Below are positions 7,192 to 47,916 of a stretch of DNA of 64,000 bases, one piece after another. The notes beneath the pieces were generated by a model. The model searched no databases, had not been told where the DNA came from, and saw only the letters and a program-made list of their open reading frames with translations. The translations under genes were made by a program, and so were the position numbers. Source of the DNA: Enterococcus phage VRE9_2; the sequence record PP680568.1; one strand, given 5' to 3'. How positions within the stretch are numbered: position 1 is the first letter of the stretch; the number at the start of each line of letters is the position of its first letter.

Positions 7192-7207
7192 TATAAACGT
7201 CCAAAGA

Positions 7208-7240
7208 GGTTCGAGTTTAAGACTCGGACCTTTTCTTTTG
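7208..7240 (+). terminator. Rho-independent terminator after the capsid gene
   Basis: Stem GGTTCGAG/CTCGGACC (one G-U), loop TTTAAGA, then TTTTCTTTT. Confidence 0.6.
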
Positions 7241-7320
7241 CTCTTTTGGGGCATATTTGTTTAAGTATAGTTTAGTTAGTTCTAAATAGATTAGAACAGA
7301 GAAAAAGGAGAGAAATAAAT

Positions 7321-7995: not shown

Positions 7996-8011
7996 AAATA
8001 AGATAAAATAG

Positions 8012-8042
8012 AATGGCTGGCTTACGAGCCAGTCATTTTTTT
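8012..8042 (+). terminator. Rho-independent terminator
   Basis: 11-bp stem AATGGCTGGCT/AGCCAGTCATT with TACG loop, followed by T7. Confidence 0.65.
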
Positions 8043-8056
8043 AGGAGGAAAAGGAA

Positions 8057-12514: not shown

Positions 12515-12521
12515 TAATTAT

Positions 12522-12557
12522 AAAAGACCTAGTATTTTTGCTAGGTCTTTTTTTTGT
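12522..12557 (+). terminator. Rho-independent terminator after the major tail gene
   Basis: Stem AAGACCTAG/CTAGGTCTT followed by T8. Confidence 0.65.
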
Positions 12558-12617
12558 AAGTATTTCGTATTTTTTATTATTGATAAAGACATATGAGAAA
12601 AAGGAGAGAAACATACT

Positions 12618-22950: not shown

Positions 22951-22963
22951 AATATAAAAACTA

Positions 22964-23000
22964 GGGGCGGAAATACGACTATTTTCGCCCTTTCTTTTTA
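22964..23000 (+). terminator. Rho-independent terminator after the tape measure gene
   Basis: GGGGCGG...CGCCC hairpin followed by TTTCTTTTT. Confidence 0.55.
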
Positions 23001-23039
23001 ATCTCAATAGGAAAAAAGAGAAAAAGGAGCTGACATGAT

Positions 23040-32657: not shown

Positions 32658-32661
32658 AAAT

Positions 32662-32704
32662 AAATGGTCATTCCTAATTATTTGGGAGTGACCATTTCTT
32701 ATTT
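32662..32704 (+). terminator. Rho-independent terminator after the fibre gene
   Basis: Stem AATGGTCA/TGACCATT with a long loop, T-rich tail. Confidence 0.45.
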
Positions 32705-32739
32705 CCCAAGAGAGAAGAGGAAAAGGAGGAAATTTAATA

Positions 32740-35118
32740 ATGGCAACAAGTGGAGAGAAATATACTGCTTTTGCTCGACATCGTTTAAATTGTAGATGGT
32801 CGATAAATCGACAAGATATTGCTGGTAACTATACCATTGTCACCGGTTTTTTATATTTACAATCTATGGACGCTTACGGAGCTATTCAGGCTTCTGCTGT
32901 AGGTCAAGCACAAGTTACAATTAATGGACAAAAACAAACTGAAAACGCAACTTCTCAATTAAGTGCGCGTCAAAATAAATTATTACTAGCTAAAGATTAT
33001 CGAGTAGGACATAATAATGATGGTTCAAAAACGACTACTGTTTCTGGGAGCTATTTTGTAAATGTTACATTCGCAGGAGTTTATTATGGAACAATATCGG
33101 TTGGGAATTTCAATGCAAGCTTACCTAAAATTCCTAGACACAGTTCTTTGAATGCAGTACCAACATTTACAGTTCCTAATGGATGTTCTTTTTCTATTAG
33201 TAGACAATCTAATTTTACTCATAATCTAACTTTTTGGGTCCAAAATAGAGCAAACCCTAATTTATCAGATGATAGTCATTGGACTTATTTAACTAATGTA
33301 GATAATGTTGCTACAAGTGGTAAATTTAATTTTACAGATGGACAACTAGCGACTATTGCACAAAGGATTAAACAATTTGCTGGTAATGGTGGAAATATCC
33401 TAGGAAAAGTTAAATTATGGACGAATGGCGTATCCGGTCTTAGCCAACAACGAACAGTTCAGATTGCTCATCCAGCACCAGTAACACCTAAGTTAGCAAG
33501 CTTTAAATTAACAGCAGGAAACAAACTTGCTATACAATTAGATAATTTTCAATCAAACAATAAATTTAAATATGATATTACATTTAAGTGCGCAGGTTGG
33601 ACTAAATCTTGGAATAATGTAACTACTAATAAAATAGATTGGACTCTAACCCAAGACGAAGTTAACAATATACTTCAAAGATTTACAGGCGCTTCAAAAA
33701 ATGGTTTTGCTATTGAGGCAAATTCAAAATTAGCTGGGAGCCAATATAGGAACACTGTTGGTTCTAGTGGTTCTGCAGAAGTAGATACAAATACAGCATC
33801 TCCCTTAATAACCGAAGGTTTTTCTCATGAAGATACAAATCAGGTGTCTATTGCTATAACAGGTAATAAAAAAATACTTTTAGATAAAAATTCTACTTTA
33901 AGAGTAACAGTTCCTAGTTCAATAATAACAACTAGAGACTATGGTAAGCCAGCTAGTGTTGAGGCATCATTTGCAGGAACCAAAAAAACAGTTAATTATG
34001 CAGAAGGAAATATGGTTTTAGACTTTGGTATTATTACAGGAACAACAGGGAACTTAACTGTGACTGCTATTGACAGTCGAGGATTAAAGGGGAGTGCTTC
34101 TTATGAAGTTACGGTACTTCCATATAATATGCCTGTAATTAATTTTAATGTAAGAAGAAATAACAGTTTTGAAACAGATACTTTAGTTTCAGGTACTTCT
34201 ATTTGGTCTCCTGTTGATGGAAAAAATAAAATTTTATCTGTACAATATCAAATAAGTGGTTCAGACAAGGTAGATATTCCTTTTACTACAGCAGCAAATG
34301 TTTTAAGTATTACAGCGCAAACATTGCCACTGGACAATTCTCAATCTTGGACAGTTACGATATTTATTACAGATAAAACTGGAACATATTCTAGATCGTA
34401 TAATATTACAGAAGGTAAACCCCTAATGTTTATCGACCCAAACCGCAAATCTGTTTCTTTTGGAGATTTTCCAACAACTGGTGAAGAAAGAGGATTACCT
34501 GGCGTTATAGAAATTGAGGCAGAAAGATATCATGATTCAGGCAAAACTGGTATTCAAATGAATAATAGTGATATCTCTGGTCTAAATGGAATATTCTTTT
34601 CTAATGATACAATGAATAATCATGGAGAAGGCTTACATTTTATTAAAAGTGGTAAACCTGTTAATTCTAATAATTTAGATGATTACGACTATGTTTATAT
34701 GAGAGATGGCTCTCTCTATATTAATAATGATAGCGTTCCACTCTTTACTATCAATCCAGAAAAATCTGGTTTTGTAGAGAAAAAATTATGGTCTGGGGCT
34801 TGGTATATCGGTAATACTCAAAGAACAACTATATCTAAAAGTATTTATGCTTGCCCGAATGGTTGGGCATTATTCTTTTCTAAATATTCTAATGGAACAG
34901 CGTCTGATGTAGACTCCGTATGCGTACTTCTTCATAAAGCTACCATACAATCGACCGGTACTAATCATAAACGTGTACTAGTTTCGACATATGCTAATAC
35001 AATAGCAGTTAAAGCTTTTCATATCGAAGACCACGGAAAAACAATTGTAGGTTCTAATGACAACAATAATTCAGGAGAAGGTGCTAAAACAGTATTAAGG
35101 GCGGTGTATGAATGGTGA
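32740..35118 (+). CDS. Putative receptor-binding / tail fibre protein (792 aa)
   Basis: Beta-rich and N/T/S-rich. Follows the giant fibre. Last gene before the small accessory genes and the lysis cassette, which is a typical RBP position. Confidence 0.45.
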   Translation: MATSGEKYTAFARHRLNCRWSINRQDIAGNYTIVTGFLYLQSMDAYGAIQASAVGQAQVTINGQKQTENATSQLSARQNKLLLAKDYRVGHNNDGSKTTTVSGSYFVNVTFAGVYYGTISVGNFNASLPKIPRHSSLNAVPTFTVPNGCSFSISRQSNFTHNLTFWVQNRANPNLSDDSHWTYLTNVDNVATSGKFNFTDGQLATIAQRIKQFAGNGGNILGKVKLWTNGVSGLSQQRTVQIAHPAPVTPKLASFKLTAGNKLAIQLDNFQSNNKFKYDITFKCAGWTKSWNNVTTNKIDWTLTQDEVNNILQRFTGASKNGFAIEANSKLAGSQYRNTVGSSGSAEVDTNTASPLITEGFSHEDTNQVSIAITGNKKILLDKNSTLRVTVPSSIITTRDYGKPASVEASFAGTKKTVNYAEGNMVLDFGIITGTTGNLTVTAIDSRGLKGSASYEVTVLPYNMPVINFNVRRNNSFETDTLVSGTSIWSPVDGKNKILSVQYQISGSDKVDIPFTTAANVLSITAQTLPLDNSQSWTVTIFITDKTGTYSRSYNITEGKPLMFIDPNRKSVSFGDFPTTGEERGLPGVIEIEAERYHDSGKTGIQMNNSDISGLNGIFFSNDTMNNHGEGLHFIKSGKPVNSNNLDDYDYVYMRDGSLYINNDSVPLFTINPEKSGFVEKKLWSGAWYIGNTQRTTISKSIYACPNGWALFFSKYSNGTASDVDSVCVLLHKATIQSTGTNHKRVLVSTYANTIAVKAFHIEDHGKTIVGSNDNNNSGEGAKTVLRAVYEW

Positions 35119-35864
35119 CAAAAGAGAATGAATATAAAGATATAGTGCTTGTTTTAGACGAAAATAATTTTGTTGAACAATGGGCGGAGAATTTGAGTGG
35201 AGAAGGAAATTTTTTTCCGATAACGCTTCCCTCAGATCATCCTTTTTTCTATAATAACATAGCTTCTTTTAAACTTGAAAATTCTGAATTAGTTTTTGTT
35301 GAAGATAAATATATTGAGAATACAAAAAAGATTCAAAAGAATAATTTAGAGATAGCCTGTAAAGAAAAAATTTTAGAAGGTTTTGAATATGAATTTGAAG
35401 GAGAATTTTATCATATAAGTTATTCTGAAAATAAACAAAGTAGGTTTGAAGAAACAAAAACCCTTTTTTCTACAAAAACAATAAACATTATTGATTGGGA
35501 ATTTATTCAAAATAATGGTACTATAGTTATTAAAACATTAGATGAATTAGAATTTTTAACTTTGTATACTTTTGCTAGTATGGTAAAAATGAATAAAATC
35601 AATAAGTTAAATAATAATTTATTCTCTCTTATTGATAATGCAAAAACAGAAGAAGAGATATTGTCGATAAACTGGAATTCTGTGAAAGACGTCTTACCTG
35701 AAAAACCAATTATTGATTTAAATGGAGATGGCGAGATTAGCCAAGAAGAATTTGATGCTTTGATGAAAGAAAATAAAGAACTTAAACAAAAAGTAGAATT
35801 AAATGAAATGGCTTTAGTTGATGCTATTAATATGTTATCTAATATGATTATCGGACAATCTTAA
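35112..35864 (+). CDS. EF-hand-containing protein, translationally coupled to the RBP-like gene (possible fibre chaperone/assembly factor)
   Basis: ATGGTGA overlap with the upstream stop. Canonical 12-residue EF-hand loop DLNGDGEISQEE followed by FDALMKENKELKQKVELNEMAL coiled-coil. Confidence 0.45.
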   Translation: MVTKENEYKDIVLVLDENNFVEQWAENLSGEGNFFPITLPSDHPFFYNNIASFKLENSELVFVEDKYIENTKKIQKNNLEIACKEKILEGFEYEFEGEFYHISYSENKQSRFEETKTLFSTKTINIIDWEFIQNNGTIVIKTLDELEFLTLYTFASMVKMNKINKLNNNLFSLIDNAKTEEEILSINWNSVKDVLPEKPIIDLNGDGEISQEEFDALMKENKELKQKVELNEMALVDAINMLSNMIIGQS

Positions 35865-35879
35865 AGGAGGTGATTATTA

Positions 35880-36032
35880 ATGTATCCATATTTAGCAATT
35901 TTTTACGCAAGTCTTATTATCAAAGACCCAGAAGGTTGGAAAGGAAAAGAAAACCAAATTCCGGCTATGATTCGAGAAGATGTTATGAAACTTGTAGATG
36001 AAATGACAAAAAAAGACGTACCCGCCGAGTAA
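35880..36032 (+). CDS. Small 50-aa protein upstream of the holin
   Basis: RBS AAAGGAGGTG 7 nt before the ATG. Not in the ORF track because it is under 60 aa. Confidence 0.35.
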   Translation: MYPYLAIFYASLIIKDPEGWKGKENQIPAMIREDVMKLVDEMTKKDVPAE

Positions 36033-36119
36033 TATTATTTGGTTTAGGAATGCTAGTAGGTTTTTTATTAGCTCTTCTACTCTTTTAATCTCGGCAAAAA
36101 TTAAGGAGGAAATAAAATT

Positions 36120-36449
36120 ATGGCAAATATTGATATGAGTCAAATTCAAGATGTTTTCGCTGCTTTAGTAGCATTTGGTGGTATCTTGGCACCAATCGTA
36201 TTTTATATTATTCAATTAATCAAACCTTTTATCCCTAGCGATTATACTAAATTAATCGCAGTAGTTTTAGGAGGAGGTATCGGAGCAGTATTAGTAGCAA
36301 TTGCTCCTGCTCTTGGAATTGTAGGACTTAACTATATTGTTGGTATAATTGGTGGTTTAATCGGTGGTTATATTGCAACTAACCAATTTGATACTGCTGC
36401 TAAAAAAGGCTTTGAAAAAGGTCTAGACGAAACTAAAACAGAAAAATAA
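36120..36449 (+). CDS. Holin
   Basis: 109 aa. Two or three predicted TM helices (ALVAFGGILAPIVFYIIQLI; LIAVVLGGGIGAVLVAIAPALGIVGL; IVGIIGGLIGGYIA). Charged C-terminus. Immediately upstream of the lysin. Confidence 0.7.
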   Translation: MANIDMSQIQDVFAALVAFGGILAPIVFYIIQLIKPFIPSDYTKLIAVVLGGGIGAVLVAIAPALGIVGLNYIVGIIGGLIGGYIATNQFDTAAKKGFEKGLDETKTEK

Positions 36450-36463
36450 ATAAAATAAATCAA

Positions 36464-36492
36464 TAGGCTGTCATTGTACAGCCTATTTTTTT
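36464..36492 (+). terminator. Hairpin plus T7 between holin and lysin (probable attenuator/terminator)
   Basis: Stem TAGGCTGT/ACAGCCTA, loop CATTGT, then TTTTTTT. Confidence 0.5.
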
Positions 36493-36526
36493 ACATTAAA
36501 GAGAGTATTTATAAGGAGGTATATAA

Positions 36527-38959
36527 ATGGCTTTTACAGATGATTTTTTAAAAAAGATAAAAGGCGGAGCTTATGCTAGTTGGAAAAACTACAAAGTTTT
36601 ACCTTCTGTTGTTGCCGCTCAGGCAGCATTAGAATCAAACTGGGGTAGAAGTTCTTTAGCAACCCAAGGGAAAAATCTGTTTGGGGTAAAAGGAAGCTAT
36701 AAAGGGCAATCTATTGTTTTTCCTACCCAAGAGTGGACTGGTGGGGGATATGTAACTATTAATGACGCCTTTGCTAAGTATCCTAGCTGGGACGTTTCCA
36801 TTGTAGAACATGGTAAATTAATTGCAGAAAATGCTCGTTATCGTGCTGCTATTGGGAAAACAGATCCTTTAGCCCAAATTACAGCAATTTGGAGTGCTGG
36901 TTATGCAACAGACCCTGCTTATCCAAGCAAAATTATGTCAGTTATTAATGCTAACAATTTAAGGGCATGGGATTTAGACGCTTTTTCTGGTGGAGATGGC
37001 GGAGGATTTAGTGGAGATATAGGTGGAGGAAATGGTTATAAAAATTTTTCTGAAAATCTTATCAAGAAAAATGGCACTACAAGACCAGGATTCAAATTAG
37101 AAGCCATGCAAGCAATTGTAGTTCATGATATTCAAAGCAGTTCTAATTTAGGTGGAATAAGAAATATTCTTAATTCTGGAAATGGTGGACAAAAAATGGG
37201 CTATCACGTTATTGTATCAGAGAATGATGCCCAGTTAGTAGTACCTTTTACAGAAGGAGTTTATCATGCAGAGAGAGGCAAAAGCTTAGTTGCTGGTATG
37301 AGCAATCCAAATAAAAAAACTATCTCTATTGGAGTAGTAACAAAACGTTCATTATCTAATTTTTCTACTAATTTAAATATTAAATTAGCCTTAGTTATTG
37401 CAGAAATATGTAGAACATATAAAATACCTGCAACCGCTGTTTTACCAGCTTGGCAAGTAGATGGTGTAAACGAACCTATTAGCTGGTATAATAATCCTTT
37501 CTTATATACTGCTTTTGTAGGAATGGTAAGTGATGCGATTGAAAAGGGAGAAGATGTAATCACAAATCCTGACTACAATAGTGGCGGAGGAGGAACTGGC
37601 GCTGATGGTTTAATACCAAATGGAGAAGGCGCAATTAAAAATATTATTAAAGAAGCTAATGATTTACTTGGTTCAATGACTTATTCTTGGACAAGACCTG
37701 CTCAAATAAGAAAGGGAGGTTTTGGAGACTGTTCTTCTTTTTGTCAATATTTATATCAAAAACACGCAAATGTTGATATAGGAAGTTATACTGATGCCCA
37801 ATGGTTCGGAAGCTGGGGTAAAAAAGTAGATGTTAAAGATGCTAGAGCAGGAGATTTAATTTTCTTTGCTGGAACATATGCAACTAATATGACAACTACC
37901 CATATTGGTATTGTAATTGGTGGAGGGAAGATGATTGATTTTGGTTCTACACCAGGTCCAAAATTAAATAATTATAATGATAGTTATTGGGGACCAAAAA
38001 TTTATGGCGTAAAACGAATTTTTTCCGATGCAGATTATAATCAATCTCAATCAGGCGGAGAAGATTCTTCAAAACCTACAATCGATCCTAAAGGAACTTA
38101 TGTTGTGAATGTTAAAAAATCAGTTGTTGCAACCAATGCTGATGTTGGTGGAGTATCTCAAAGAAGATTATCTTCTAATGAAGTTTATAGAGTACAAGAA
38201 ATTGGTAAAACTAGTTTACAATTAGCTTCTAATGAATTATGGGTGCCTAAGAGTAGTGACGCAATAACAGTTTCACGATTATCTACACCATCATCTCCTA
38301 TTGGGGCTATTTCAACTAAATTACCTACAAAGGTATATTCTGCTCCTACTTATGTAGCTGAACCAGCAATGGAGAAAGGAACACCAAGAATTCTTCCTGA
38401 AAAAACAAGTATGAATATTTACGCTGTAGAGAATGGTTTCGCTCAAGTGGATTTAGAAAAAAATCATTGGGCTGTAGCTAATTCTACATATGCGACTTTG
38501 AATATTGATTTATCTGAAGAGTTTGTAGAGGATATTAATTTTGAGCAAGGTATTCCAACCTCAACCACTGTAAGAGGACGTTATGAACCAGAAGACTTTA
38601 TTACAGTAGAAAATAGTTTACCAATTAAAAATGGACTAGCTGTAATTGCTCATCCAGATTTATTAGATATTGGTTCAGTAATTAATATAGAAATTCCATC
38701 AGCAACTAAATATAATAGAAAAGCAGTTGTTGTATCAAATAAATTAAACGATTCAGATGGAAATGTATTAGAATTGATATTTACAAATCAAGGAGATCAA
38801 TATAATTTTGGAGGAAGAACTGGAATTATTACATTATTAGAAGTATTAGACAATGATGTAGATATTACAAAATTTATGAATAATCCAGAAGATTATGAAC
38901 AAACTAAAGCTATTCCTCCGAAAACTCCAGAAGGAGGTATGTTAGGTGAGCCAAAGTAA
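36527..38959 (+). CDS. Multidomain peptidoglycan hydrolase (endolysin): glucosaminidase + amidase_2 + NlpC/P60, with C-terminal cell-wall-binding region
   Basis: aa ~25-150 resemble a mannosyl-glycoprotein endo-beta-N-acetylglucosaminidase domain (AAQAALESNWGRSSLA...LFGVKG...YATDPAYPSKI). aa ~195-300 look like amidase_2/PGRP (GYHVIV...VPF...YHAERG...NKKTISIGVV). aa ~395-475 look like NlpC/P60 with Cys/His (GGFGDCSSFCQYLY ... THIGIVIGGG). The final ~300 aa are probable SH3-like binding repeats. Confidence 0.8.
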   Translation: MAFTDDFLKKIKGGAYASWKNYKVLPSVVAAQAALESNWGRSSLATQGKNLFGVKGSYKGQSIVFPTQEWTGGGYVTINDAFAKYPSWDVSIVEHGKLIAENARYRAAIGKTDPLAQITAIWSAGYATDPAYPSKIMSVINANNLRAWDLDAFSGGDGGGFSGDIGGGNGYKNFSENLIKKNGTTRPGFKLEAMQAIVVHDIQSSSNLGGIRNILNSGNGGQKMGYHVIVSENDAQLVVPFTEGVYHAERGKSLVAGMSNPNKKTISIGVVTKRSLSNFSTNLNIKLALVIAEICRTYKIPATAVLPAWQVDGVNEPISWYNNPFLYTAFVGMVSDAIEKGEDVITNPDYNSGGGGTGADGLIPNGEGAIKNIIKEANDLLGSMTYSWTRPAQIRKGGFGDCSSFCQYLYQKHANVDIGSYTDAQWFGSWGKKVDVKDARAGDLIFFAGTYATNMTTTHIGIVIGGGKMIDFGSTPGPKLNNYNDSYWGPKIYGVKRIFSDADYNQSQSGGEDSSKPTIDPKGTYVVNVKKSVVATNADVGGVSQRRLSSNEVYRVQEIGKTSLQLASNELWVPKSSDAITVSRLSTPSSPIGAISTKLPTKVYSAPTYVAEPAMEKGTPRILPEKTSMNIYAVENGFAQVDLEKNHWAVANSTYATLNIDLSEEFVEDINFEQGIPTSTTVRGRYEPEDFITVENSLPIKNGLAVIAHPDLLDIGSVINIEIPSATKYNRKAVVVSNKLNDSDGNVLELIFTNQGDQYNFGGRTGIITLLEVLDNDVDITKFMNNPEDYEQTKAIPPKTPEGGMLGEPK

Positions 38960-39161
38960 ATCTTTAATTTTAAGAGACCCAAAAGGACAGAATTGGTTGG
39001 TCCGAGTGTATCATGAAGATGGTATCCGTCAATTATACACAACAAAAACTGACGAAGAGGGAGAAAATTCAGTAAGAATTAAAACCTATCAAGGATATTA
39101 TAAACTTAAAATAAGTACTAAAGGACAATTAATAACATTTCCAATTGATTCAATTGGGTAA
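38946..39161 (+). CDS. Small 71-aa protein translationally coupled to the lysin
   Basis: GTG start 7 nt after AGGAGG, overlapping the last codons of the lysin. Confidence 0.4.
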   Translation: MSQSKSLILRDPKGQNWLVRVYHEDGIRQLYTTKTDEEGENSVRIKTYQGYYKLKISTKGQLITFPIDSIG

Positions 39162-39176
39162 TATATAAAAAGAATT

Positions 39177-39214
39177 AGAGGGTATGCAATAACAATGTGC
39201 TTATCCTCTTTTTC
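39177..39214 (+). terminator. Rho-independent terminator after the lysis cassette
   Basis: Stem AGAGGGTA/TATCCTCT (one G-U), then TTTTT. Confidence 0.5.
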
Positions 39215-39253
39215 AATACTTTTAGAGCAAAAAACAAAAGGAGGAAAAGGATA

Positions 39254-40369
39254 ATGGAAGGATTTAAAAAACACACTTTTCGTGACCATCAAGGGAATAT
39301 TATACTTCCTGAAACAGTCTCAGAAATGGTAAGAGAAACGCCAGATAGACGTTTTGTAGATAATTCTGAAAAACAAATTTTAACTAGATTCGGTGGTAAA
39401 ATTGATATCGTCGACATGTTGATTACTAATGCAGAAGCTATTAGAGCATTGGCTACTCAAGAAGTTGCCTTAACTCAATTAATTGATAAAGTGCCAAATA
39501 ATTTCGAGGACATTGTTTTAACTACAGATGAACTATCACGTTTAGTTCCTTATATTTCACAATTAATTGAAAACTTAAGTTATCCACCAGTTGTAACTTC
39601 TACAACTTCAGGTTTATCTTACGCTTTACAAATTGATGATACAGATCCAAATAATTTAAAACTTAAATTTGCACAACAATCTATTAACACAGGTCAACCG
39701 TTAACTTATGTTAAGGGAGATAAATGGAAAGTACAACCAGGAGTTCCAGATGTATTAGTTGAATTAGTACCAACTCATATAGCTTTTGATAATTCCAGAA
39801 AAACTGTTTTAGTCTTTAACGAAGGTAAAAATTTGGTGGACGTACCAGAAGATGTATTTACAAATATAGTTAATGGTGTTCAAGAAGAAACTGTTGTTGC
39901 AGAAGATGATAATATTCCACAAGCATTTGTACGATTTGCAGTTCGTCATCAATTGCAGGAATTATTCGCTACTTCTAAAAGTTTAGAAAATACTATTTCA
40001 AACTTTACCATTGAAGTATTATCTCAACCAATGGAAGGTACAACAAGTGCATTAACGCAAGCTTATATGAACGGCAATGTAGTACAACCAGTGCGAGAAG
40101 CAAATAAAAAAGAAGATTATACTGCTAATACTTTCCAAAATATTACATGGACAAATAGTTTAGACACTAACTTTATTAGAGAATGGTTAAATGATTCTGG
40201 TGAAGCAGCATTAGTCACTTACGGAAAAGCTAATAATTCTATTAGTATCGCAAAACCAACATTAAAAGTTTATATTAAAAATCCATATATTGGAAAAACA
40301 TTAGTTGCTCAAAATGATATGGATGGTAAATTTAATATCTTAGATTGGGCTATTAGTGAAGAAGAATAA
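39254..40369 (+). CDS. Hypothetical structural-like protein (371 aa)
   Basis: Likely start is the ATG at 39254 (MEGFKKH) after AAAGGAGGAAAAGG. The tracker ORF from 39197 lacks an RBS. Confidence 0.4.
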   Translation: MEGFKKHTFRDHQGNIILPETVSEMVRETPDRRFVDNSEKQILTRFGGKIDIVDMLITNAEAIRALATQEVALTQLIDKVPNNFEDIVLTTDELSRLVPYISQLIENLSYPPVVTSTTSGLSYALQIDDTDPNNLKLKFAQQSINTGQPLTYVKGDKWKVQPGVPDVLVELVPTHIAFDNSRKTVLVFNEGKNLVDVPEDVFTNIVNGVQEETVVAEDDNIPQAFVRFAVRHQLQELFATSKSLENTISNFTIEVLSQPMEGTTSALTQAYMNGNVVQPVREANKKEDYTANTFQNITWTNSLDTNFIREWLNDSGEAALVTYGKANNSISIAKPTLKVYIKNPYIGKTLVAQNDMDGKFNILDWAISEEE

Positions 40370-40394
40370 AGGAGAAAAAGGAGGAAAGAACTAA

Positions 40395-42593
40395 ATGGCT
40401 ATTTATTATAATATTTTATATCCACCATTAGTTCCTATTACGCATCCTGCCTTTGAATTAGGAAAACCAACTGACACGTTTAGACTTTTTTTTGAACCAG
40501 CAGTTGGTAATAAAATTTCTGATTTTAAAGGAGGATTTATTAGAATCAGAAATGCTGAGACAGAAAAAAGTGCGCTATTACCAGTTGGAGAAGGATACCT
40601 AGATGATTTTATTCCTTTTAGAAATCCATTTGCTGAATATATTGATTTAAAAGATCCTTCAAAAAATATAATTCAGCCAACTGGATATAATACTACAATG
40701 CCTTATGTACAAAAAAATACTAATGGAGAATATTTCATTGATATAAAACAAGAAGCTTTTACTATGTCTGGCGCAGAAAAAGATGTTAGATATAAAATGC
40801 AAATTATGTTAACAACAGACTGGCTTTCTTCTACTAAGCCAAATGGAAGAGGAAATATTCAAACTTATTCTAGTGATGTGCAACAATATGTAAATATTGA
40901 TAAAACAACATACTTTGGAGGAAATTTAATTTCTAAGGGATTGTCTGAGTGGTCTACTATTTCTTTAATTTCTCCTGTAAGTGAAGCAATCTATGAATTG
41001 CAATTTGATGGAGATAATATTTTCTCACCAATATTTGAGTTTGTTGGTTCTAATATCCAAGAAAATATTAGAAATAATACAATGGCTAATTATCTTAAGG
41101 CTTATAGAATTGATATTTATAGAGCTAATGGAGACGAAAAAGAACTCTTTATTGATTCAAGTGATTGGATTATCGGTCAAGAGCCTTCTAATATTGAAAT
41201 CAGATGGCAAAATGTAGTAGAATTAGAAGATAAGAATAAGTATATAGTTGAATTATCAATACAAACTGCCTGGGACTTAAGAAAAACATTTACTTACCAT
41301 GTTACAACACAATTTGAAGGAAGCTTATTTAGAGGTACAGTTAGTGTTGAAAACGATCATGATAATGCTCGTTCTAAAATCAAACTAAATATAAAAACAC
41401 CTCTACAATGGGGACCAAAGGAAAACTTTGAAATTTCTCTTAACGATAGAGAATTTGCTGACGCAACTGGAGAAGTATCTGTGCTTGAAGGGATAGACTT
41501 CTTTAATAAACAAGCTGCTATAGCAGGGGAAATGATAGTTTCTGGAATTAACCCAATAAAAACTTGGGAGGCAAAAGAAGACCGGTGGTTCTTCAGGCTC
41601 AAGGGACCAGAAATTTCTACAATAAATCCCTATCAAGAAGAATATCTAATGTATGCTCATACTGCTCCTCTTGGGAAAGATAAGGCTTCTGAAGGTCCAT
41701 ATGAAGACGATATTATTATTAATCCTGTTATTGAAAGTCCATCAGGAGATATATATCTAACTTACCTAGATAGTTCTAAAACTCCTACAACAGAAGGAGG
41801 AATTGTTGGGGGCATGGGAGGTATTGTTACTATTCCAAGCGAAGATTTACCAAGTTCGCATACTTTCTTCTATTTAGAAGACGAAAATCAACAATTATGG
41901 AAAACAACTGTTACAATTAATGGAGAATTCGTTACAGAACAATCTCATGAAAAAGATCCAACAGAATTTTTAAAACCCGTTTGTTTCTTTGATTCCTATC
42001 ATAATATTTTAGTGGTCCCAAGAGTAGAGACAGATGGAACCATTATCCTTGATACAATTTATGAAAACTATGTATTGGGAGAAAATGTTCGTCCGATGTA
42101 TCTTAATGAGTTTAGATTTGTTAAACGAGTTTACGCTCTTGAGCTTGGAAGAAAAACTCTATTAACTACACAAACTTACAAGGCTTACATGAATGATTTT
42201 AATAAGAAATTAAATAAGTGGGTTAAAATACAACCAACAAGAAAATATTACATGTATTTCTCTTGTATTGATGGACAGATAAGATTAATAGTACGAGACC
42301 TATCTGCTGATGATAGTCAAAATAGTTTAGATAGATTTACACTAACTTATTCTGAAGGATTTATGAATAGTGTAGGAATAAGTTCCGATATGTTCTTAAC
42401 GACAACTGGTTTAGGTTCAGATTTCCTACCAAAAGTGGATTTAAGTGGTAAGGAAGTTCCTTATACAATTACAGCAGATGAACGAGGAGTCTTAGGAACG
42501 GACGTTGGAAACATCTCTGCTGCAACAACACGTTCGAGAGATTTATTAACCAGTGACATTGAAGAATTAAAGAGTAAAGGAGAAATAGAATAA
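40395..42593 (+). CDS. Hypothetical large beta-rich protein (732 aa), probable virion/baseplate component
   Basis: RBS AAAGGAGG. Aromatic-rich composition typical of tail proteins. Confidence 0.35.
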   Translation: MAIYYNILYPPLVPITHPAFELGKPTDTFRLFFEPAVGNKISDFKGGFIRIRNAETEKSALLPVGEGYLDDFIPFRNPFAEYIDLKDPSKNIIQPTGYNTTMPYVQKNTNGEYFIDIKQEAFTMSGAEKDVRYKMQIMLTTDWLSSTKPNGRGNIQTYSSDVQQYVNIDKTTYFGGNLISKGLSEWSTISLISPVSEAIYELQFDGDNIFSPIFEFVGSNIQENIRNNTMANYLKAYRIDIYRANGDEKELFIDSSDWIIGQEPSNIEIRWQNVVELEDKNKYIVELSIQTAWDLRKTFTYHVTTQFEGSLFRGTVSVENDHDNARSKIKLNIKTPLQWGPKENFEISLNDREFADATGEVSVLEGIDFFNKQAAIAGEMIVSGINPIKTWEAKEDRWFFRLKGPEISTINPYQEEYLMYAHTAPLGKDKASEGPYEDDIIINPVIESPSGDIYLTYLDSSKTPTTEGGIVGGMGGIVTIPSEDLPSSHTFFYLEDENQQLWKTTVTINGEFVTEQSHEKDPTEFLKPVCFFDSYHNILVVPRVETDGTIILDTIYENYVLGENVRPMYLNEFRFVKRVYALELGRKTLLTTQTYKAYMNDFNKKLNKWVKIQPTRKYYMYFSCIDGQIRLIVRDLSADDSQNSLDRFTLTYSEGFMNSVGISSDMFLTTTGLGSDFLPKVDLSGKEVPYTITADERGVLGTDVGNISAATTRSRDLLTSDIEELKSKGEIE

Positions 42594-43186
42594 TGGATAA
42601 AGTAGACTTAAAAATACAAGTACCCAGACGATTAGAAATTGATCCTCCAGCTAATGTGGGACCTTCTAAATTCCCTAGTGTTGTAGATCAATTAAAAGTA
42701 ATTGAATATTCAAGTGTCCCTTCTGGCGGACAATTAGAAAAAGATTTACATGATTATTATGCTATCTTAGCGAATGTATCAAATAATACAGCGTCAGAGC
42801 AAGACTTTGTAAAACTTAAAGAGTTAATGTTAAGGGTTCGTAATTATGTTTTAACAGAAGATGATTTCAATCTAATGGCTGATGCTGTTAGAACTACACA
42901 ATCTTATTTAAAGGCATCAATTGAAGCCGCAGATGGCAACTACGAACTAATTTCAATCGTTGCTCAACAACTAGTAGACCAAATTAATGAATGGAGTCTA
43001 TGGCTTCAAGATGAACTAGCAAAAGTAGCAGCTAATAAAAATTGGGGTGCGCCAGTAATTTACAGTGAAAATAGTCCAGGCCCTTCTGCTCTTGGATATT
43101 TATGGGCTCAACCACAAGACGATACCTACATTGCTCCGGCAATCACTTTTAACCCTGATGAAGACTTAAATGATTATCCACAATAA
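42593..43186 (+). CDS. Hypothetical protein (197 aa)
   Basis: Start overlaps the upstream stop (coupled). Confidence 0.35.
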   Translation: MDKVDLKIQVPRRLEIDPPANVGPSKFPSVVDQLKVIEYSSVPSGGQLEKDLHDYYAILANVSNNTASEQDFVKLKELMLRVRNYVLTEDDFNLMADAVRTTQSYLKASIEAADGNYELISIVAQQLVDQINEWSLWLQDELAKVAANKNWGAPVIYSENSPGPSALGYLWAQPQDDTYIAPAITFNPDEDLNDYPQ

Positions 43187-43200
43187 GGAGGTAGATATAA

Positions 43201-45054
43201 ATGGCAGTACCATTTGCTTCGTTTAAAGAATATGGTAATGACGACTTACAACTATACTATCCCTTATTAATGACTTCTCCAGCTATTCCACAGGCTGGAG
43301 ATAGTTATCTTTCTGATATAGCTTTAAGAGATATTTCAATTAAATCTATATATATGGAAGGTGGTCATATGGAACCTAATTTAGATTGGGATGGTAGTCG
43401 TTATGATTGGGCTTCTGGAGTTACAGAAATACAGTCAGATTTTGTTGATGCAGGAGGAGAATCTCCAACAGGCAATTTTAACTTATTAAAGAATACAGCT
43501 TTGTCAACTTTCCAAAGTACTTATTGGACTTCAGTTTTTGAAAAACCTTATGTAGAGGGCTCTGATGATATTGAACAACCTTATAATTGGATTTATTCTA
43601 ATTCTGAACCTTCTGACCATAGTAAAATTTGGGTTGATACAAAGGAAGAAACTATAGAACCTAAATATTATCAAGATGGCTGGAAAAATTATTATGATTT
43701 TAAACAAGAAGAGTTTAAGGGTGAGGTTGGATTAGTAGAAAATAAAAGAAATGGAAATGCCTTTAGAATTTATAAAGCTCCTAAAATTAATGCTAACGTA
43801 GGTATTGCTCAGTTTGTGCCATTAAAAATAGTTTTATGGCAAGGAGATGCTATCACAGTTGGCTTTAATCTTAGTGAAAAAACCGATTCAGGTGGAGCAG
43901 TAATTCGTATAGAATTCTATGATAATAATAGACAGTTAATTCAAACAAAATATTCTCCTAGATTCTTTAATAAAACTGAAGAAAGTAAACATTTTGGACA
44001 TCCTTTTATTTTTACGGATCGAACAAAAGCGGCAGCTTTTATTAGAGTTTCTATTCTTGGAGTAGAAGACCGAAAAAGTGAATTACAAGTAAATAGAATT
44101 AAAGCAGAAACAGGTATGGAAGATACAGGATGGAATTTACACGAAGAAGAATTATTGTTAAATCTTAATGCAGGAGAAATAGATATTCCAATGCTTAATG
44201 GAGAAGTTGATAAATCTAAATTAATTTCTGAAATTGCAATATTGCGTTCTGTTTTGGGAGAAGGATTATTAAAATGGGAAGAAGTAACTAGACTAAAATC
44301 TAGTTCAGTACAAGAAGCGATTTTGTATGATTATTTTATAGAAAATGGTAATTATTATCGCTATGCTTTGCAACCTATATTAGCAAATGGAATGAAAGGT
44401 GCTATTACATCATTTTTTGATACTGTAACTACTTTTGATGGTTTCTGGTTGTTAGGAGAAAAAGATGAACAATTCTCATTTATTTACAATGGTAAAATTG
44501 GAGAAATTTCCTATGTAAAACCTAGAGATGTTATTCAAACTATTGCAGGACAATATCCATATTTTGTAACCTCTTCTGAATTAGATTATAGAACATATCA
44601 ATTTTCTGGTACATTAACTTATCATCAAGATGTTCACAAATTACTTACTTCTGATAGTTATTCTGTAGCGATATCTCCAGATCCAACTATTCCTATTAGT
44701 TATGTAGAACTAAAATATGGAGATGAAATGTTACTCAATATGAAGAATGATTTAGAAGAAGTACAAGATGGCATGGTAATGCAAAGAATTTGGAGAAATA
44801 AAATTCTAGCATGGTTAAATGATGGAAAACCTAAAATTCTTAAATCAGAAGCTCAAGGAAATATGTTAGTAATGTTAACAAATATTAAGGTTACCCCAAA
44901 TGAACCAACATTTGGTTTAATTTCTGATTTTGAATGTACTGTTACCGAAATTGGAAAACTTGATGAAAAAGCATTACAAAAATATAAACTTCGTAAATCT
45001 TCTATTATGAAAGATGAACTTGTAAAAGAAGCTATGAAAAATACTTCATTCTAA
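43201..45054 (+). CDS. Hypothetical large protein (617 aa), probable virion/baseplate component
   Basis: RBS AAGGAGG. Beta-rich. Confidence 0.35.
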   Translation: MAVPFASFKEYGNDDLQLYYPLLMTSPAIPQAGDSYLSDIALRDISIKSIYMEGGHMEPNLDWDGSRYDWASGVTEIQSDFVDAGGESPTGNFNLLKNTALSTFQSTYWTSVFEKPYVEGSDDIEQPYNWIYSNSEPSDHSKIWVDTKEETIEPKYYQDGWKNYYDFKQEEFKGEVGLVENKRNGNAFRIYKAPKINANVGIAQFVPLKIVLWQGDAITVGFNLSEKTDSGGAVIRIEFYDNNRQLIQTKYSPRFFNKTEESKHFGHPFIFTDRTKAAAFIRVSILGVEDRKSELQVNRIKAETGMEDTGWNLHEEELLLNLNAGEIDIPMLNGEVDKSKLISEIAILRSVLGEGLLKWEEVTRLKSSSVQEAILYDYFIENGNYYRYALQPILANGMKGAITSFFDTVTTFDGFWLLGEKDEQFSFIYNGKIGEISYVKPRDVIQTIAGQYPYFVTSSELDYRTYQFSGTLTYHQDVHKLLTSDSYSVAISPDPTIPISYVELKYGDEMLLNMKNDLEEVQDGMVMQRIWRNKILAWLNDGKPKILKSEAQGNMLVMLTNIKVTPNEPTFGLISDFECTVTEIGKLDEKALQKYKLRKSSIMKDELVKEAMKNTSF

Positions 45055-45060
45055 TGAAGA

Positions 45061-45105
45061 ATCAAACTGGGGAACTTGTAATAGTACCCAGTTTGATTTT
45101 TTTAT
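45061..45105 (+). terminator. Rho-independent terminator
   Basis: 11-bp stem ATCAAACTGGG/CCCAGTTTGAT followed by T6. Confidence 0.65.
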
Positions 45106-45150
45106 ATAAAAAAGAGAAACTTACATACCAAGAGCAAAGGAGAGAAACTA

Positions 45151-47916
45151 ATGAATGAAAATATTAATATTAAGCAGTACCCTACTTCTTTTTTAGAAGA
45201 GCTTTTCGAGCATAATATTAGAGTAGTGCATACTAAGATACAGTTACTTAATTGGGACGAACAAGTTTTAAGAGAAATACAAGGTATTGTAAAAAGTGGA
45301 AGTTATAATGCTGATGGAACAAGTCGAGTAAGAAGAAATCTATCTCTAACTTTTAGTGTAAAAGATAGAGACGATGAATTGGTCTATAAATATCTAACTC
45401 CAGATAAAAAAATAAAATTATATATAGGATTGGAAAATCAAACTTCTCGTTATCAAGAAGATGAAATTATATGGTTTAATATGGGAATTTTTATTTTAAC
45501 CGAACCATCTTATTCTCATTCTGTTGACACAGCGACTATATCAATTAATGCACAAGATAAAATGACTATGCTAAATGGTACATTAGGAGGTCGCCTTCCA
45601 GCCCCAGTAAGTTTTGTAGAAAAAAGAAATGGCAAGAACTATTCCTTCTCTTGGAGAGATATTTTCTTAAGTGCAGCAGTAAATTTTGGGAATGAGAATC
45701 CAGCAAAGGTTATTATTGATTCTGTTCCAGATTATATAAATGAATATACGCAAGTAAAAAATGTAGCTGGATTAAAAGATAAATTTATTCATATTAATGC
45801 TCCTGCAGATATAGATGGAGAAAGAATTATTACTAGAGCTTGGAGTCCAACAGTTCCAGAAACAGAAATTAATTTTTCAAAGGGTGATAGAATCTATAAA
45901 TTGCGCAGATTTGGTCCACCTGATCCATCAGCAGGAACGGTAAGTACTCAAGAATCTTATCAAAAGAATGTAAATGAACCATTAACCTCTATTTTTGAAG
46001 ATATTGTAGAAGCTATGAGTAATACTCATGAATATTTTTATACTCGTGATGGAGATTTAATGTTTCAACCTATTAAGAATTATGTTAACGAGGTATTTGA
46101 CCCTGAAAAAGATACAGATTTAGGATATTTCGCTTATGAATTAGATATGGATGATTTTATTCCTAATTATCTAGGTCTTCCTTTTACCTATAATTTTGCC
46201 GATAAAAAAACTATTATTAGATATAACAACAATCCTAGTTATACAAATATCAAAAATGATTTTATAGCAACTAGAGAAACAGGAGAAATTTTAGAAATAG
46301 CAATAGATCATAAACCAACAATTAGAGAGATCAAGGAATGGTTTATTGGAGTTGCAGAAGATTTTAATATGGATTCTCCAGAAATGGATTTTTTAGCAAA
46401 AGATGGAAAAAGAAGAGAGCCATATAATCCTCAAACTAATACAGTTCCCTTTGAATTTAAAGAAGCCACAGCAGGAAAACCAACACAATATGTTGAAGTT
46501 CCATTAGATAAAATTCCATGGCAAATTGGTTTGGGACTTAAAAATTATTTTATTAGAAATATTTATGGTGCTTCTACTGCAAGAGTTCTCCCTAGATGGG
46601 GAAAAGAATGTGAATCTATGATTTTTAAATGGATTGCATCTGAAGATAAAAAAACTTTGTTGCCAAACACTGGAATTTTTAATCCATCTTTTATTTCTGT
46701 CGGAACTCCGTGGTTAGCAGGTTATCCTATGGCTGCAAGCGCAAACACAGAAAACGATGTTGAATCTTTAGATAAACAGAATCCTATTTTTACTGATAAG
46801 GGTGATTCGGCTTATTGGACTTACTTTCTTGATATTATACCAACAGAATCTAAATTGGGCAAATATTCTATTGAGTTAATTGGTAAACGTTCAATTGGTG
46901 TTTCTAATAAACAGGCAACTACCCTTTTTAGAACAAACCCTAAAGAATTAATTGTTATTACAGAAACAGAATTACAAGATTTAGGCGGAGATATGATATT
47001 AGATAATTTAAAAGCACAAGGAGAAGCTTATGCAGTAATTAGAGATATACAAGATCAATTTTTTATGCCAACAGCAATAACAAAAAATAAAAATGTTATG
47101 CCTTATAGTGCTATGGTTGGAGACCCAGGACGGTTTGAACAATTACGATATATGTTTGCAGAAAGCAATGGAACAGTTCACGAATATCTAGTTGGTGGTA
47201 AACATACTGGTACTATTGGGACAAATAAGAATATGCAAGACCAAGATAAGCCTGGATATGTTACAATTTCTGCTGGTGTATATACTAATCCAGTTACAAA
47301 AAGACAATTTACACAAACAGATTTTGCAACCATAAATACTCCTTTTGGTAGTGAAACAGATTTAACAGAATATGGTTTTATTGCTTATTTATTAAATAAA
47401 AACAGTCGTTGTCCTGACAGTGGAAATCATAATTATTTTGCTGTAGTTAAAAATATAGGTACTCAATGGTACTATGCTAAACAAAATAATGGAAAACCTG
47501 CATGGACTAAATTTAATTGGGATAAAACTAATGACTTTTTGGTAGCAGTATTAAGTAAAACTGTTTATAAAGGGAGCGCAGATTTTCCTGATTGGTCAAG
47601 TGGCAGAATTGACGATTTTCAAGAATTATTTAATATTAGAGATTCTGAAATGGATAATTTATTTACTATTGATGGAGCAGTTGATTTATTTTCTTCTGTC
47701 AGGAATTTAATTTATCAGCATACAAATACTTCAGATGTAGTAACAATAGATGTATTACCAGTTTATCATTTAGAACCAAATACATTAATTTATGCAGAAG
47801 ATGAAATCTCAAATATATCAGGAATGTTTATGATAACAGGATATTCTATACAATTAAACACAGAAGGAAGTCCAACAATGAATATTTCTGCAATACAAAC
47901 AAATCCAGCTATATAA
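45151..47916 (+). CDS. Tal-like baseplate hub / minor structural protein (921 aa)
   Basis: N-terminal ~150 aa resemble the 'phage minor structural protein N-terminal region' / tail-associated-lysin hub pattern (ELVYKYLTPDKKIKLYIGLEN ... WFNMGIFILTEP ... ISINAQDKMTMLNGTLGG). Called by eye only. Confidence 0.4.
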   Translation: MNENINIKQYPTSFLEELFEHNIRVVHTKIQLLNWDEQVLREIQGIVKSGSYNADGTSRVRRNLSLTFSVKDRDDELVYKYLTPDKKIKLYIGLENQTSRYQEDEIIWFNMGIFILTEPSYSHSVDTATISINAQDKMTMLNGTLGGRLPAPVSFVEKRNGKNYSFSWRDIFLSAAVNFGNENPAKVIIDSVPDYINEYTQVKNVAGLKDKFIHINAPADIDGERIITRAWSPTVPETEINFSKGDRIYKLRRFGPPDPSAGTVSTQESYQKNVNEPLTSIFEDIVEAMSNTHEYFYTRDGDLMFQPIKNYVNEVFDPEKDTDLGYFAYELDMDDFIPNYLGLPFTYNFADKKTIIRYNNNPSYTNIKNDFIATRETGEILEIAIDHKPTIREIKEWFIGVAEDFNMDSPEMDFLAKDGKRREPYNPQTNTVPFEFKEATAGKPTQYVEVPLDKIPWQIGLGLKNYFIRNIYGASTARVLPRWGKECESMIFKWIASEDKKTLLPNTGIFNPSFISVGTPWLAGYPMAASANTENDVESLDKQNPIFTDKGDSAYWTYFLDIIPTESKLGKYSIELIGKRSIGVSNKQATTLFRTNPKELIVITETELQDLGGDMILDNLKAQGEAYAVIRDIQDQFFMPTAITKNKNVMPYSAMVGDPGRFEQLRYMFAESNGTVHEYLVGGKHTGTIGTNKNMQDQDKPGYVTISAGVYTNPVTKRQFTQTDFATINTPFGSETDLTEYGFIAYLLNKNSRCPDSGNHNYFAVVKNIGTQWYYAKQNNGKPAWTKFNWDKTNDFLVAVLSKTVYKGSADFPDWSSGRIDDFQELFNIRDSEMDNLFTIDGAVDLFSSVRNLIYQHTNTSDVVTIDVLPVYHLEPNTLIYAEDEISNISGMFMITGYSIQLNTEGSPTMNISAIQTNPAI

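Follow-up and report, generated by a model that had tools for sequence, protein, structure and literature searches.

Five genes behind the holin and lysin genes of Enterococcus phage VRE9_2 probably form a displaced, split tail-tip module with a hub of predicted gp27/Tal type

Baseplate hubs of the gp27/Tal type include T4 gp27, Mu gp44, P2 gpD, 80alpha Tal, Listeria prophage gp18 and the N-terminus of VgrG. Long-tailed siphophages have tail-tip complexes, of which those of T5 (pb9, pb3 and pb4) and lambda (gpM, gpL and gpJ) are examples, and the 'evolved' Dits and baseplate proteins of Lactobacillus and Lactococcus siphophages carry inserted carbohydrate-binding modules (CBMs). Here we investigate five genes at positions 39254–47916 of a 64,000-nucleotide stretch of Enterococcus phage VRE9_2 [GenBank: PP680568.1], the window, which takes in the whole tail gene region from the tape measure gene onward. 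We read these genes, with a probability of about 0.8, as a displaced and split tail-tip module of a siphophage, the structure that makes contact with the host cell wall and opens it. What is new here is a standard type of hub at an unusual genomic position, beside a partner family that is unannotated and locally split.

The source phage is an Enterococcus siphophage of ~138 kb. Over 39254–47916 it has 95.5–95.9% nucleotide identity to Enterococcus phages H1, VRE9_3, VRE9_4, EF1 and EF5 (134–142 kb), and in the deposited sequences of these relatives all five genes are annotated as hypothetical. In the paper on the recoded gut phage phAss-1, EF1 and Enterocloster phage PMBT24 are assigned to what may be a new family of large siphophages, whose tape measure proteins are very long (PMC10607447). 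PMBT24 has siphovirus morphology and a tail tip with globular appendages (PMC11035940). In the window the tape measure gene occupies 14929–22950 and encodes 2673 amino acids, and the minus-strand replication genes converge on the block of five genes:

39254–40369, plus strand: A371, 371 amino acids from an ATG (in the list of open reading frames (ORFs), an upstream GTG at 39197 makes it 390 amino acids)
40395–42593, plus strand: B732, 732 amino acids
42593–43186, plus strand: C197, 197 amino acids
43201–45054, plus strand: D617, 617 amino acids
45151–47916, plus strand: E921, 921 amino acids

The original prediction, made from the sequence of this stretch, had described five plus-strand genes with products of 371, 732, 197, 617 and 921 amino acids as mostly translationally coupled. 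All five are present, each start is preceded, at normal spacing, by a GGAGG-type Shine-Dalgarno sequence, and the four intergenic gaps from A371 to E921 are 25, -1 (an overlap), 14 and 96 nucleotides, so that the description of coupling is a fair one. Both the GC content and the GC content at third codon positions are the same as in the other late genes. The best PHROG matches of the five proteins are full-length matches to families of unknown function, with the exception of residues 26–142 of E921.

E921 is a gp27/Tal-type baseplate hub by its predicted fold. A set of 73 homologues was collected and aligned (A1). The AlphaFold2 model of E921 has a mean predicted local distance difference test score (pLDDT) of 84.1 and a predicted template modelling score of 0.65. 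When it was compared with the PDB by Foldseek there were 35 matches at E <= 1e-3, and those listed are hubs of phages, tailocins, contractile injection systems and type VI secretion systems; they include the AlgoCIS hub, diffocin, Mu gp44, the MuSo2 43-kDa tail protein, the monocin tip, Listeria prophage gp18, phi812, the baseplate of siphophage Douge, T4 gp27 and 80alpha Tal. The alignments extend over ~350–400 columns with target-normalised TM-scores of 0.4–0.47 and a probability of 1.0, and on these matches the model has the four-domain gp27/gp44 hub fold. Against BFVD, a collection of predicted viral structures, 381 matches were obtained at E <= 1e-3, the named ones being mostly annotated as tail protein, '43 kDa tail protein', 'late control GPD' or DUF5048 protein.

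The original prediction of a hub/Tal-like N-terminus in the 921-residue protein is therefore real, since apart from these fold matches residues 26–142 match PHROG 1887 'tail protein' (3.8e-9) and a tblastn search with the N-terminus finds the PMBT24 'baseplate hub' and the tail protein gp45 of Geobacillus virus E3. Homologues of E921 lie two to five genes past the tape measure gene in Geobacillus E3, PMBT24 and the relative L005. Across the family, residues ~10–390 and ~830–918 (the last ~70–90 residues) are conserved and the middle ~450 residues are more variable; the C-terminal end of some shorter homologues has a weak DUF5048 score. At the sequence level, hub hidden Markov models (HMMs) run against all six-frame ORFs of the window matched only the ORF at 45097–47913.

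How does E921 compare with described hubs? Its predicted fold is like those of T4 gp27, Mu gp44, P2 gpD, 80alpha Tal, Listeria prophage gp18 and the VgrG N-terminus, but it is much longer, with ~450 residues of extra middle domains and a conserved C-terminus of ~70 residues, and it has no Pfam match at E <= 0.01 and no NCBIfam match at E <= 0.1, the models including the curated ones for hubs, GPD and prophage tails. Its gene is not at the usual hub position either, as it starts 22.2 kb beyond the tape measure gene's end, and genes for fibres, holin and lysin intervene. The resemblance to the tail tips of T5 and lambda lies in a large hub of ~900–1100 residues with extra domains, a very long tail, accessory proteins and a central fibre. 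Unlike in those phages, the gene order is a different one, the role of the protein encoded next to the hub has no established counterpart, and no sequence similarity to the T5 or lambda proteins was detected.

That neighbouring protein is conserved. Searched with the hub alignment, IMG/VR returned 361 relatives with identities from 25% to 99%, and 80 of their loci were fetched. About half of these (about 40 of 80) have a single ORF of 560–1030 amino acids that ends where the hub gene begins; we call its product the pre-hub protein. A pre-hub-like ORF is found beside the hub in nearly all of the 80. In the Enterococcus phage the pre-hub alignment is divided between two proteins. By hhalign, residues 1–338 of B732 correspond to the N-terminal ~330 residues of the pre-hub alignment (probability 99.4, E 3.9e-21) and residues 345–599 of D617 to the next ~260 (probability 99.95, E 3.5e-38). 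With hmmsearch the pre-hub HMM matches residues 1–334 of B732 at positions 1–291 (E 3.5e-31) and residues 323–607 of D617 at positions 280–552 (E 5.3e-54), so that the two ranges are contiguous and barely overlap. On these profile alignments, B732 and D617 derive from one ancestral pre-hub gene that has been split in two.

Intermediate arrangements are found among the relatives. One locus (L033) has the pre-hub parts as neighbouring genes. Two others (L010 and L011) have a 758-residue protein matching HMM positions 8–295 only, a 340-residue protein with a C197-like domain, a 730-residue protein matching positions 299–556 only, and then the hub, which is the same layout as B732, C197, D617 and E921. 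The split in L010 and L011 occurs without lysis genes, and in L010 these four genes come straight after a gene for a protein like p661, the first protein encoded after the tape measure in the Enterococcus phage.

The relationship claimed is that of contiguous halves. B732 and D617 were considered as paralogues and this was rejected (hhalign of one against the other, probability 0.1). The N-terminus of D617 gives E 0.19 against the pre-hub N-terminus, though a "LYxPL..SPA"-like motif is common to both, and the C-terminal half of B732 matches neither the pre-hub alignment nor D617. Because there is no similarity between B732 and D617, an origin by duplication is not demonstrable. The C-terminal half of B732 is clade-specific and has an insertion hot spot near residues 465–480, where homologues of 1004 and 1179 amino acids have large insertions. 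A further homologue of 1205 amino acids (L088, 3525–7139) contains a Metallophos (calcineurin-like phosphoesterase) domain, at 26.4 bits against a cut-off of 21.5; judged from that domain match, a tail-tip protein could here carry an activity that degrades wall polymers.

When 30 pre-hub homologues were compared with Pfam and PHROG, the only matches were to PHROGs of unknown function, with no consistent Pfam family. Profile searches against PDB sequences with the hub, D617, pre-hub and p661 N-terminal families, and with p792 and p2533 as single sequences, gave no match. A split multisubunit RNA polymerase was also considered, having been raised by the five large unannotated genes and by the "QFDGDN" of B732 (~residues 203–208). 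It was rejected, as QFDGDN is not conserved in the pre-hub alignment, E921 has a predicted hub fold, and no polymerase family matched.

D617 carries an insertion:

43468–44160, plus strand: CBM-like jelly-roll insertion in D617, residues ~90–320

The D617 model has a mean pLDDT of 66, with values above 90 in the insertion. The fold search reported only the insertion, owing to the low model confidence of the conserved core (residues 340–600). With E values from 2e-6 to 2e-4 the insertion matches CBM4, CBM11, CBM16, CBM61 and an alginate CBM, and also domains of the tailspikes or fibres CBA120 TSP4, Kp7 gp52 and K2-2 TSP. On its predicted structure it is a carbohydrate-binding-module-like jelly-roll, placed within a conserved scaffold. 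Short homologues of D617 (381–389 amino acids) do not have residues 86–318, and in the homologue P0085 the insertion site holds a module 32% identical to residues 822–954 of p2533, the giant fibre-like protein of the Enterococcus phage. Exchanges of this kind, like the insertions in B732 homologues, are what exposed, modular proteins of the virion would show.

A conserved scaffold encoded 5' of the hub, with a CBM-like jelly-roll at a variable insertion site, is also what evolved Dits have. Is the pre-hub then an evolved Dit, with D617, or B732 and D617 together, as a hexameric ring over the Tal E921 in an ordinary, if decorated, Dit-Tal pair? The pre-hub gene, here D617, lies directly 5' of the hub gene as a Dit gene does; the CBM-like insertion in the conserved scaffold resembles what the evolved Dits of Lactobacillus and Lactococcus phages show; and the window offered no further candidate for a Dit. 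On the other side, none of p661, B732, D617 and the 30 pre-hub homologues has a Pfam match to Sipho_tail, the Dit family, or a sequence match to a solved Dit; nor do B732, D617 and the 30 pre-hub proteins have any consistent Pfam match or PDB sequence match. The pre-hub proteins, at 560–1030 amino acids, are far larger than Dit, and in the phage family it is a giant p661-like protein that follows the tape measure. The D617 scaffold is half of a larger ancestral protein, divided here between two genes, unlike the scaffold of evolved Dits, and the D617 core is modelled only at pLDDT 35–80. An evolved Dit is thus a possibility to be taken seriously, if one that we are inclined to doubt. A bolder proposal is that the pre-hub is an undescribed distal-tail adaptor that replaces canonical Dit in a large, mostly uncultured family of gut Firmicutes siphophages of 80–150 kb, the related hub gene being present on at least 361 IMG/VR contigs, and that it has been split in the Enterococcus branch around a small gene, with a holin and a tail lysin lying inside the tail-tip gene region. 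This we offer tentatively, and think rather unlikely as a whole.

The place next to the tape measure, where Dit and Tal normally sit, is occupied by other genes:

23040–25025, plus strand: p661, first gene after the tape measure gene

The original prediction held that the two genes after the tape measure, p661 and the one at 25056–32657, did not look like canonical Dit and Tal, and at the level of these sequence searches this holds: neither has a Dit or Tal Pfam match, they match fibre-type PHROGs, and no second hub-like ORF is detectable in the window. The N-terminal ~100 residues of p661 are conserved across the family; in PMBT24, phAss-1 and L005 they begin the protein encoded next after the tape measure. 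This domain heads proteins of 169 to ~2400 amino acids, including proteins of 1000–2400 residues in IMG/VR relatives, and residues 115–659 of p661 match PHROG 3267 and fibre PHROGs. Compared with Pfam, the N-terminal family of p661 gave nothing consistent, and p661 itself has no Pfam Dit match. The pattern of its N-terminus (window 23040–23340), a helix and then a small beta-barrel, is co-linear with the OB domain of the P2 gpV spike. As an identification with the gpV OB domain this was rejected because it is not significant (hmmsearch E 0.036 with a single target; hhalign probability 0.3), and searching IMG/VR for relatives of gpV brought up only near-identical sequences.

The second gene, at 25056–32657, is one ORF of 2533 residues here (p2533), and the same stretch is annotated as four ORFs in VRE9_3. 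N-terminal pieces of p2533 and the C-terminal half of p661 both match PHROG 3267, which suggests repeated modules. Several IMG/VR loci (L020, L021, L023, L057 and others) have their tail genes in many short ORFs under genetic code 11. TAG-recoded phages using code 15 have been described for phAss-1, and the loci with short ORFs fit this (PMC10607447).

Gene order bears on whether the baseplate genes are displaced. p661 adjoins the tape measure gene and D617 adjoins the hub gene, and no single gene is next to both, here or in the relatives. The order in distant relatives is tape measure, a p661-like giant of 1000–2400 residues, a membrane/coiled-coil protein of ~150–180 residues, pre-hub and hub. 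Where there was enough downstream flank, the hub gene was the last plus-strand gene before minus-strand genes in 27 of 76 loci, as it is here. On the simplest reading of these gene orders, the hub itself probably did not move, and in the Enterococcus branch the genes for fibres (p792 and p250), holin, lysin, p71 and A371 lie between the giant fibre genes and a terminal hub module. The first alternative of the original prediction, baseplate genes displaced to behind the lysis cassette, is supported by the hub fold of E921 and by the pre-hub homology and synteny of B732 and D617 in the relatives. The word displaced is apt for the unusual place; as an account of what happened, an insertion of fibre, holin and lysin genes upstream of the hub module is the better reading.

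The membrane/coiled-coil protein of the relatives is an observation in itself. A conserved ORF of ~145–180 amino acids lies directly upstream of the fused pre-hub gene (L009, 6853–7365; L012, 6887–7393; L013, 7570–8058; ~30 other loci) and encodes a transmembrane helix at the N-terminus, then a coiled coil and a C-terminal domain that is conserved; nothing corresponding to it was found in the window. C197 was considered as one and rejected, the apparent match to this ~170-residue ORF being an artefact of a sequence present in both alignments.

The atypical position of the block, behind the lysis genes and bordering on the replication module, together with the hypothetical annotation of all five genes, could also suggest a function outside the virion, such as host takeover, superinfection exclusion or a tailocin-like remnant that reuses a hub-like fold. 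However, E921 is the sole hub-like ORF in a window that spans the tail genes from the tape measure on, its homologues in relatives lie a few genes past the tape measure, and pre-hub and hub are adjacent in about 40 of 80 loci. The exchange of a module with the fibre protein, and a strand and codon composition that is the same as in other late genes, also speak against it. We regard a non-virion function as extremely improbable, and the host-takeover apparatus that the original prediction gave as its alternative is without support.

How far does the tail-tip module extend? Upstream of A371 there are the following features:

36120–36449, plus strand: holin (PHROG 1299, 4.8e-17)
36462–36487, plus strand: hairpin and T-run, separating holin from lys810
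36527–38959, plus strand: lys810, peptidoglycan hydrolase of 810 amino acids with three catalytic domains
38946–39161, plus strand: p71, small conserved protein between the lysin and A371
39172–39214, plus strand: hairpin and T-run, terminator-like or an attenuator (-16.8 kcal/mol, z -2.5)

The catalytic domains of lys810 are Glucosaminidase (residues 15–145, 6.5e-34), Amidase_2 (residues 194–303, 2.2e-5, just below the cut-off) and NlpC/P60 (residues 400–497, 6.7e-15), and a Pfam scan recognised no wall-binding domain in residues 500–810. It matches endolysin PHROGs strongly, and also PHROGs named tail protein with endopeptidase or lysin activity. Two divergent relatives show what surrounds such a gene. 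The locus L006, with a hub 49% identical to E921, has in order a holin, a separate conventional endolysin of 618 amino acids (Glucosaminidase, Amidase_3 and PG_binding_1), a lys810 homologue, a 77-residue protein, the N-terminus only of A371, and then homologues of B732, C197, D617 and E921. L088, with a hub 35% identical, has a lysin with Phage_lysozyme2 and NlpC/P60 domains, ORFs of 254 and 76 amino acids, homologues of all five genes (21% identity for A371, 31% for B732, 47% for C197, 35% for D617 and 35% for E921) and convergent replication genes. Phage_lysozyme2 is described by Pfam as a phage tail lysozyme.

The order of lysin, small ORF and the five genes from A371 to E921 is thus kept in L006 and L088, and separate endolysins exist in L006 (618 residues) and in VRE9_3. 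The latter (L087, PP680569.1) has a 406-residue annotated endolysin at record positions 92854–94074 among nucleotide-metabolism genes, and also a 'transglycosylase' at record positions 71114–71698, both lying outside the window. Given a separate endolysin in VRE9_3, lys810 need not be the lysis enzyme; and since the lysin, p71 and A371 to E921 are conserved as the last late genes in divergent relatives, it is probably a tail lysin. We lean towards lys810 as a tail-associated lysin, the first gene of the conserved module, on the strength of this synteny. It is like the tail-associated lysins of Gram-positive phages in having several hydrolase domains and no recognised wall-binding domain and in its synteny with the tail tip. 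It is unlike them in being free-standing, directly after the holin and annotated as endolysin.

The alternative is that lys810 is the true endolysin of a normal holin-lysin cassette ended by the hairpin at 39172–39214, with A371 to E921 as a separate tail-tip operon. Its gene begins 77 nucleotides past the holin gene, its endolysin PHROG matches are strong, a hairpin with T-run does follow p71, and VRE9_3 carries the same annotation. Yet a hairpin with T-run also lies between holin and lys810, L006 has its 618-residue endolysin between the holin and the lys810 homologue, the Phage_lysozyme2 and NlpC/P60 lysin of L088 stands at the equivalent place ahead of A371 to E921, and another endolysin is annotated elsewhere in VRE9_3. 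The three catalytic domains without a recognised wall-binding domain, and the matches to tail protein PHROGs, also count against it. A true endolysin is quite conceivable but somewhat disfavoured. The lysis cassette of the original prediction accordingly stands as to the presence of a holin and a hydrolase; the hydrolase probably belongs to the tail-tip module instead.

A371, C197 and p71 are of narrower distribution. A371 is conserved in its N-terminal ~130 residues, the C-terminal part being absent from short forms: in L006 it is a 144-residue protein of which only residues 4–130 of A371 are conserved, and at the equivalent position in L088 there is a 419-residue protein with 21% identity over the full length. 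A library of 1.84 billion proteins holds 23 representatives, both full-length and N-terminal-only forms, a small family in which neither informative domains nor a Pfam match were found. C197 is 56% identical in L006 and 47% in L088, and in L010 and L011 the C197-like domain is inside the 340-residue ORF sited between the two pre-hub halves. There is no similarity between A371 and C197, and a relationship between them was rejected. For p71, the 77-residue homologue in L006 has 36% identity, and the 76-residue ORF at its position in L088 has no detected similarity to it. From their distribution, A371 and C197 may be clade-specific accessory tail-tip proteins.

Homologues of A371, C197, p71 and lys810 were found only in closer relatives (L001, L006–L008 and L088), apart from the C197-like domain in L010 and L011. 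This would fit a foreign tail-tip module, recently acquired through mosaicism, whose position results from horizontal acquisition. E921, B732 and D617, in contrast, have graded homologues throughout the family (the 361 IMG/VR relatives), the composition of the genes is that of their neighbours, and L010 and L088 have intermediate architectures. We consider a recent foreign origin very unlikely.

Is the hairpin ahead of A371 a boundary? The original prediction had taken it as a terminator, and the hairpin at 39172–39214 is indeed followed by TTTTT, the form of an intrinsic terminator. Another, stronger one lies inside the block:

45056–45102, plus strand: strong hairpin and T-run in the gap between D617 and E921 (-23.3 kcal/mol)

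At least nine such hairpins were counted in the late region. They follow the genes ending at 1361, 7191, 7995, 12514, 22950 (tape measure), 32657, 36449 (holin), 39161 and 45054, and the gaps that bear them are 1362–1466, 7192–7320, 7996–8056, 12515–12617, 22951–23039, 32658–32739, 36450–36526, 39162–39253 and 45055–45150. Since similar hairpins follow many late genes, and one separates D617 from E921, the one at 39172–39214 does not mark a module boundary. The terminator of the original prediction is thus present as a hairpin and T-run, but it does not hold as the limit of a functional unit. Judged from their distribution, the hairpins may be attenuators or RNA-stabilising elements along one long late transcription unit.

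Nearly every longer late intergenic gap has a hairpin and T-run, then ~30–45 nucleotides, then a strong Shine-Dalgarno sequence. The motif TYCCAAGAR occurs 10 times in the window against 3.1 expected by chance, and three of its plus-strand copies, at 1428, 11444 and 32704, fall within the 5' leaders of late genes, a short way ahead of the ribosome-binding site; ACCAAGAG is found near 45127. Two further features lie ahead of the holin gene. The gap between p250 and the holin contains a 50-residue ORF with its own GGAGG site (35881–36033), which is annotated in VRE9_3 and matches PHROG 1382, and which is shorter than the minimum ORF length applied here. The product of p250 (35112–35864) matches a tail-fibre PHROG and has an EF-hand-like calcium-binding loop at residues 201–220, just under the Pfam cut-offs.

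Several results weigh against a tail-tip module. As the original prediction had said, the five proteins carry no assignable motif: none of A371, B732, C197, D617 and E921 has a Pfam match or a meaningful NCBIfam match, and no PDB sequence match supports any of them. The window as a whole yielded no canonical Dit, and the conserved core of D617 reaches a pLDDT of only 35–80. The gene for lys810 adjoins that of the holin and is annotated as endolysin, which it could truly be. The searched literature yielded no virion proteomics or imaging for this phage or for EF1, EF5, H1 or VRE9_3.

From the computed hub fold, pre-hub homology of B732 and D617, synteny and CBM-like fold, we infer presence in the virion, ring or adaptor roles, sugar binding and a tail-lysin role, in the following arrangement. 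A trimer of E921, as modelled on the gp27/Tal type, would close the tail tube, and B732 and D617 would probably form an adaptor layer between tube and hub. E921 trimers, B732 and D617 would together make up the tail-tip core for tape measure and tube assembly, with A371 and C197 as accessory proteins. During adsorption the predicted CBM-like domain of D617 would probably bind cell-wall polysaccharide, and lys810, probably virion-associated, would open the peptidoglycan locally at infection. The genes from A371 to E921 would be expressed as the last part of the late region, with transcription passing through the hairpins that punctuate it.

If the five genes form a tail tip, they are the probable site of the determinants of adsorption and wall penetration, namely the hub, D617 with its CBM-like domain, and the sites in B732 and D617 that are hot spots for insertion. 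The relatives include phages isolated on vancomycin-resistant E. faecium, which are of therapy interest. For annotation, the assumption that a holin and a lysin mark the end of the structural module can mislead, and hairpin terminators are unusable as module boundaries in this genome. The graded intermediates, with the pre-hub fused, split and adjacent (L033), or split with an intervening gene (L010), offer a case study of baseplate change. The pre-hub family, conserved beside the hub and without Pfam, PDB or functional PHROG annotation, is a defined structural target in widespread gut phages.

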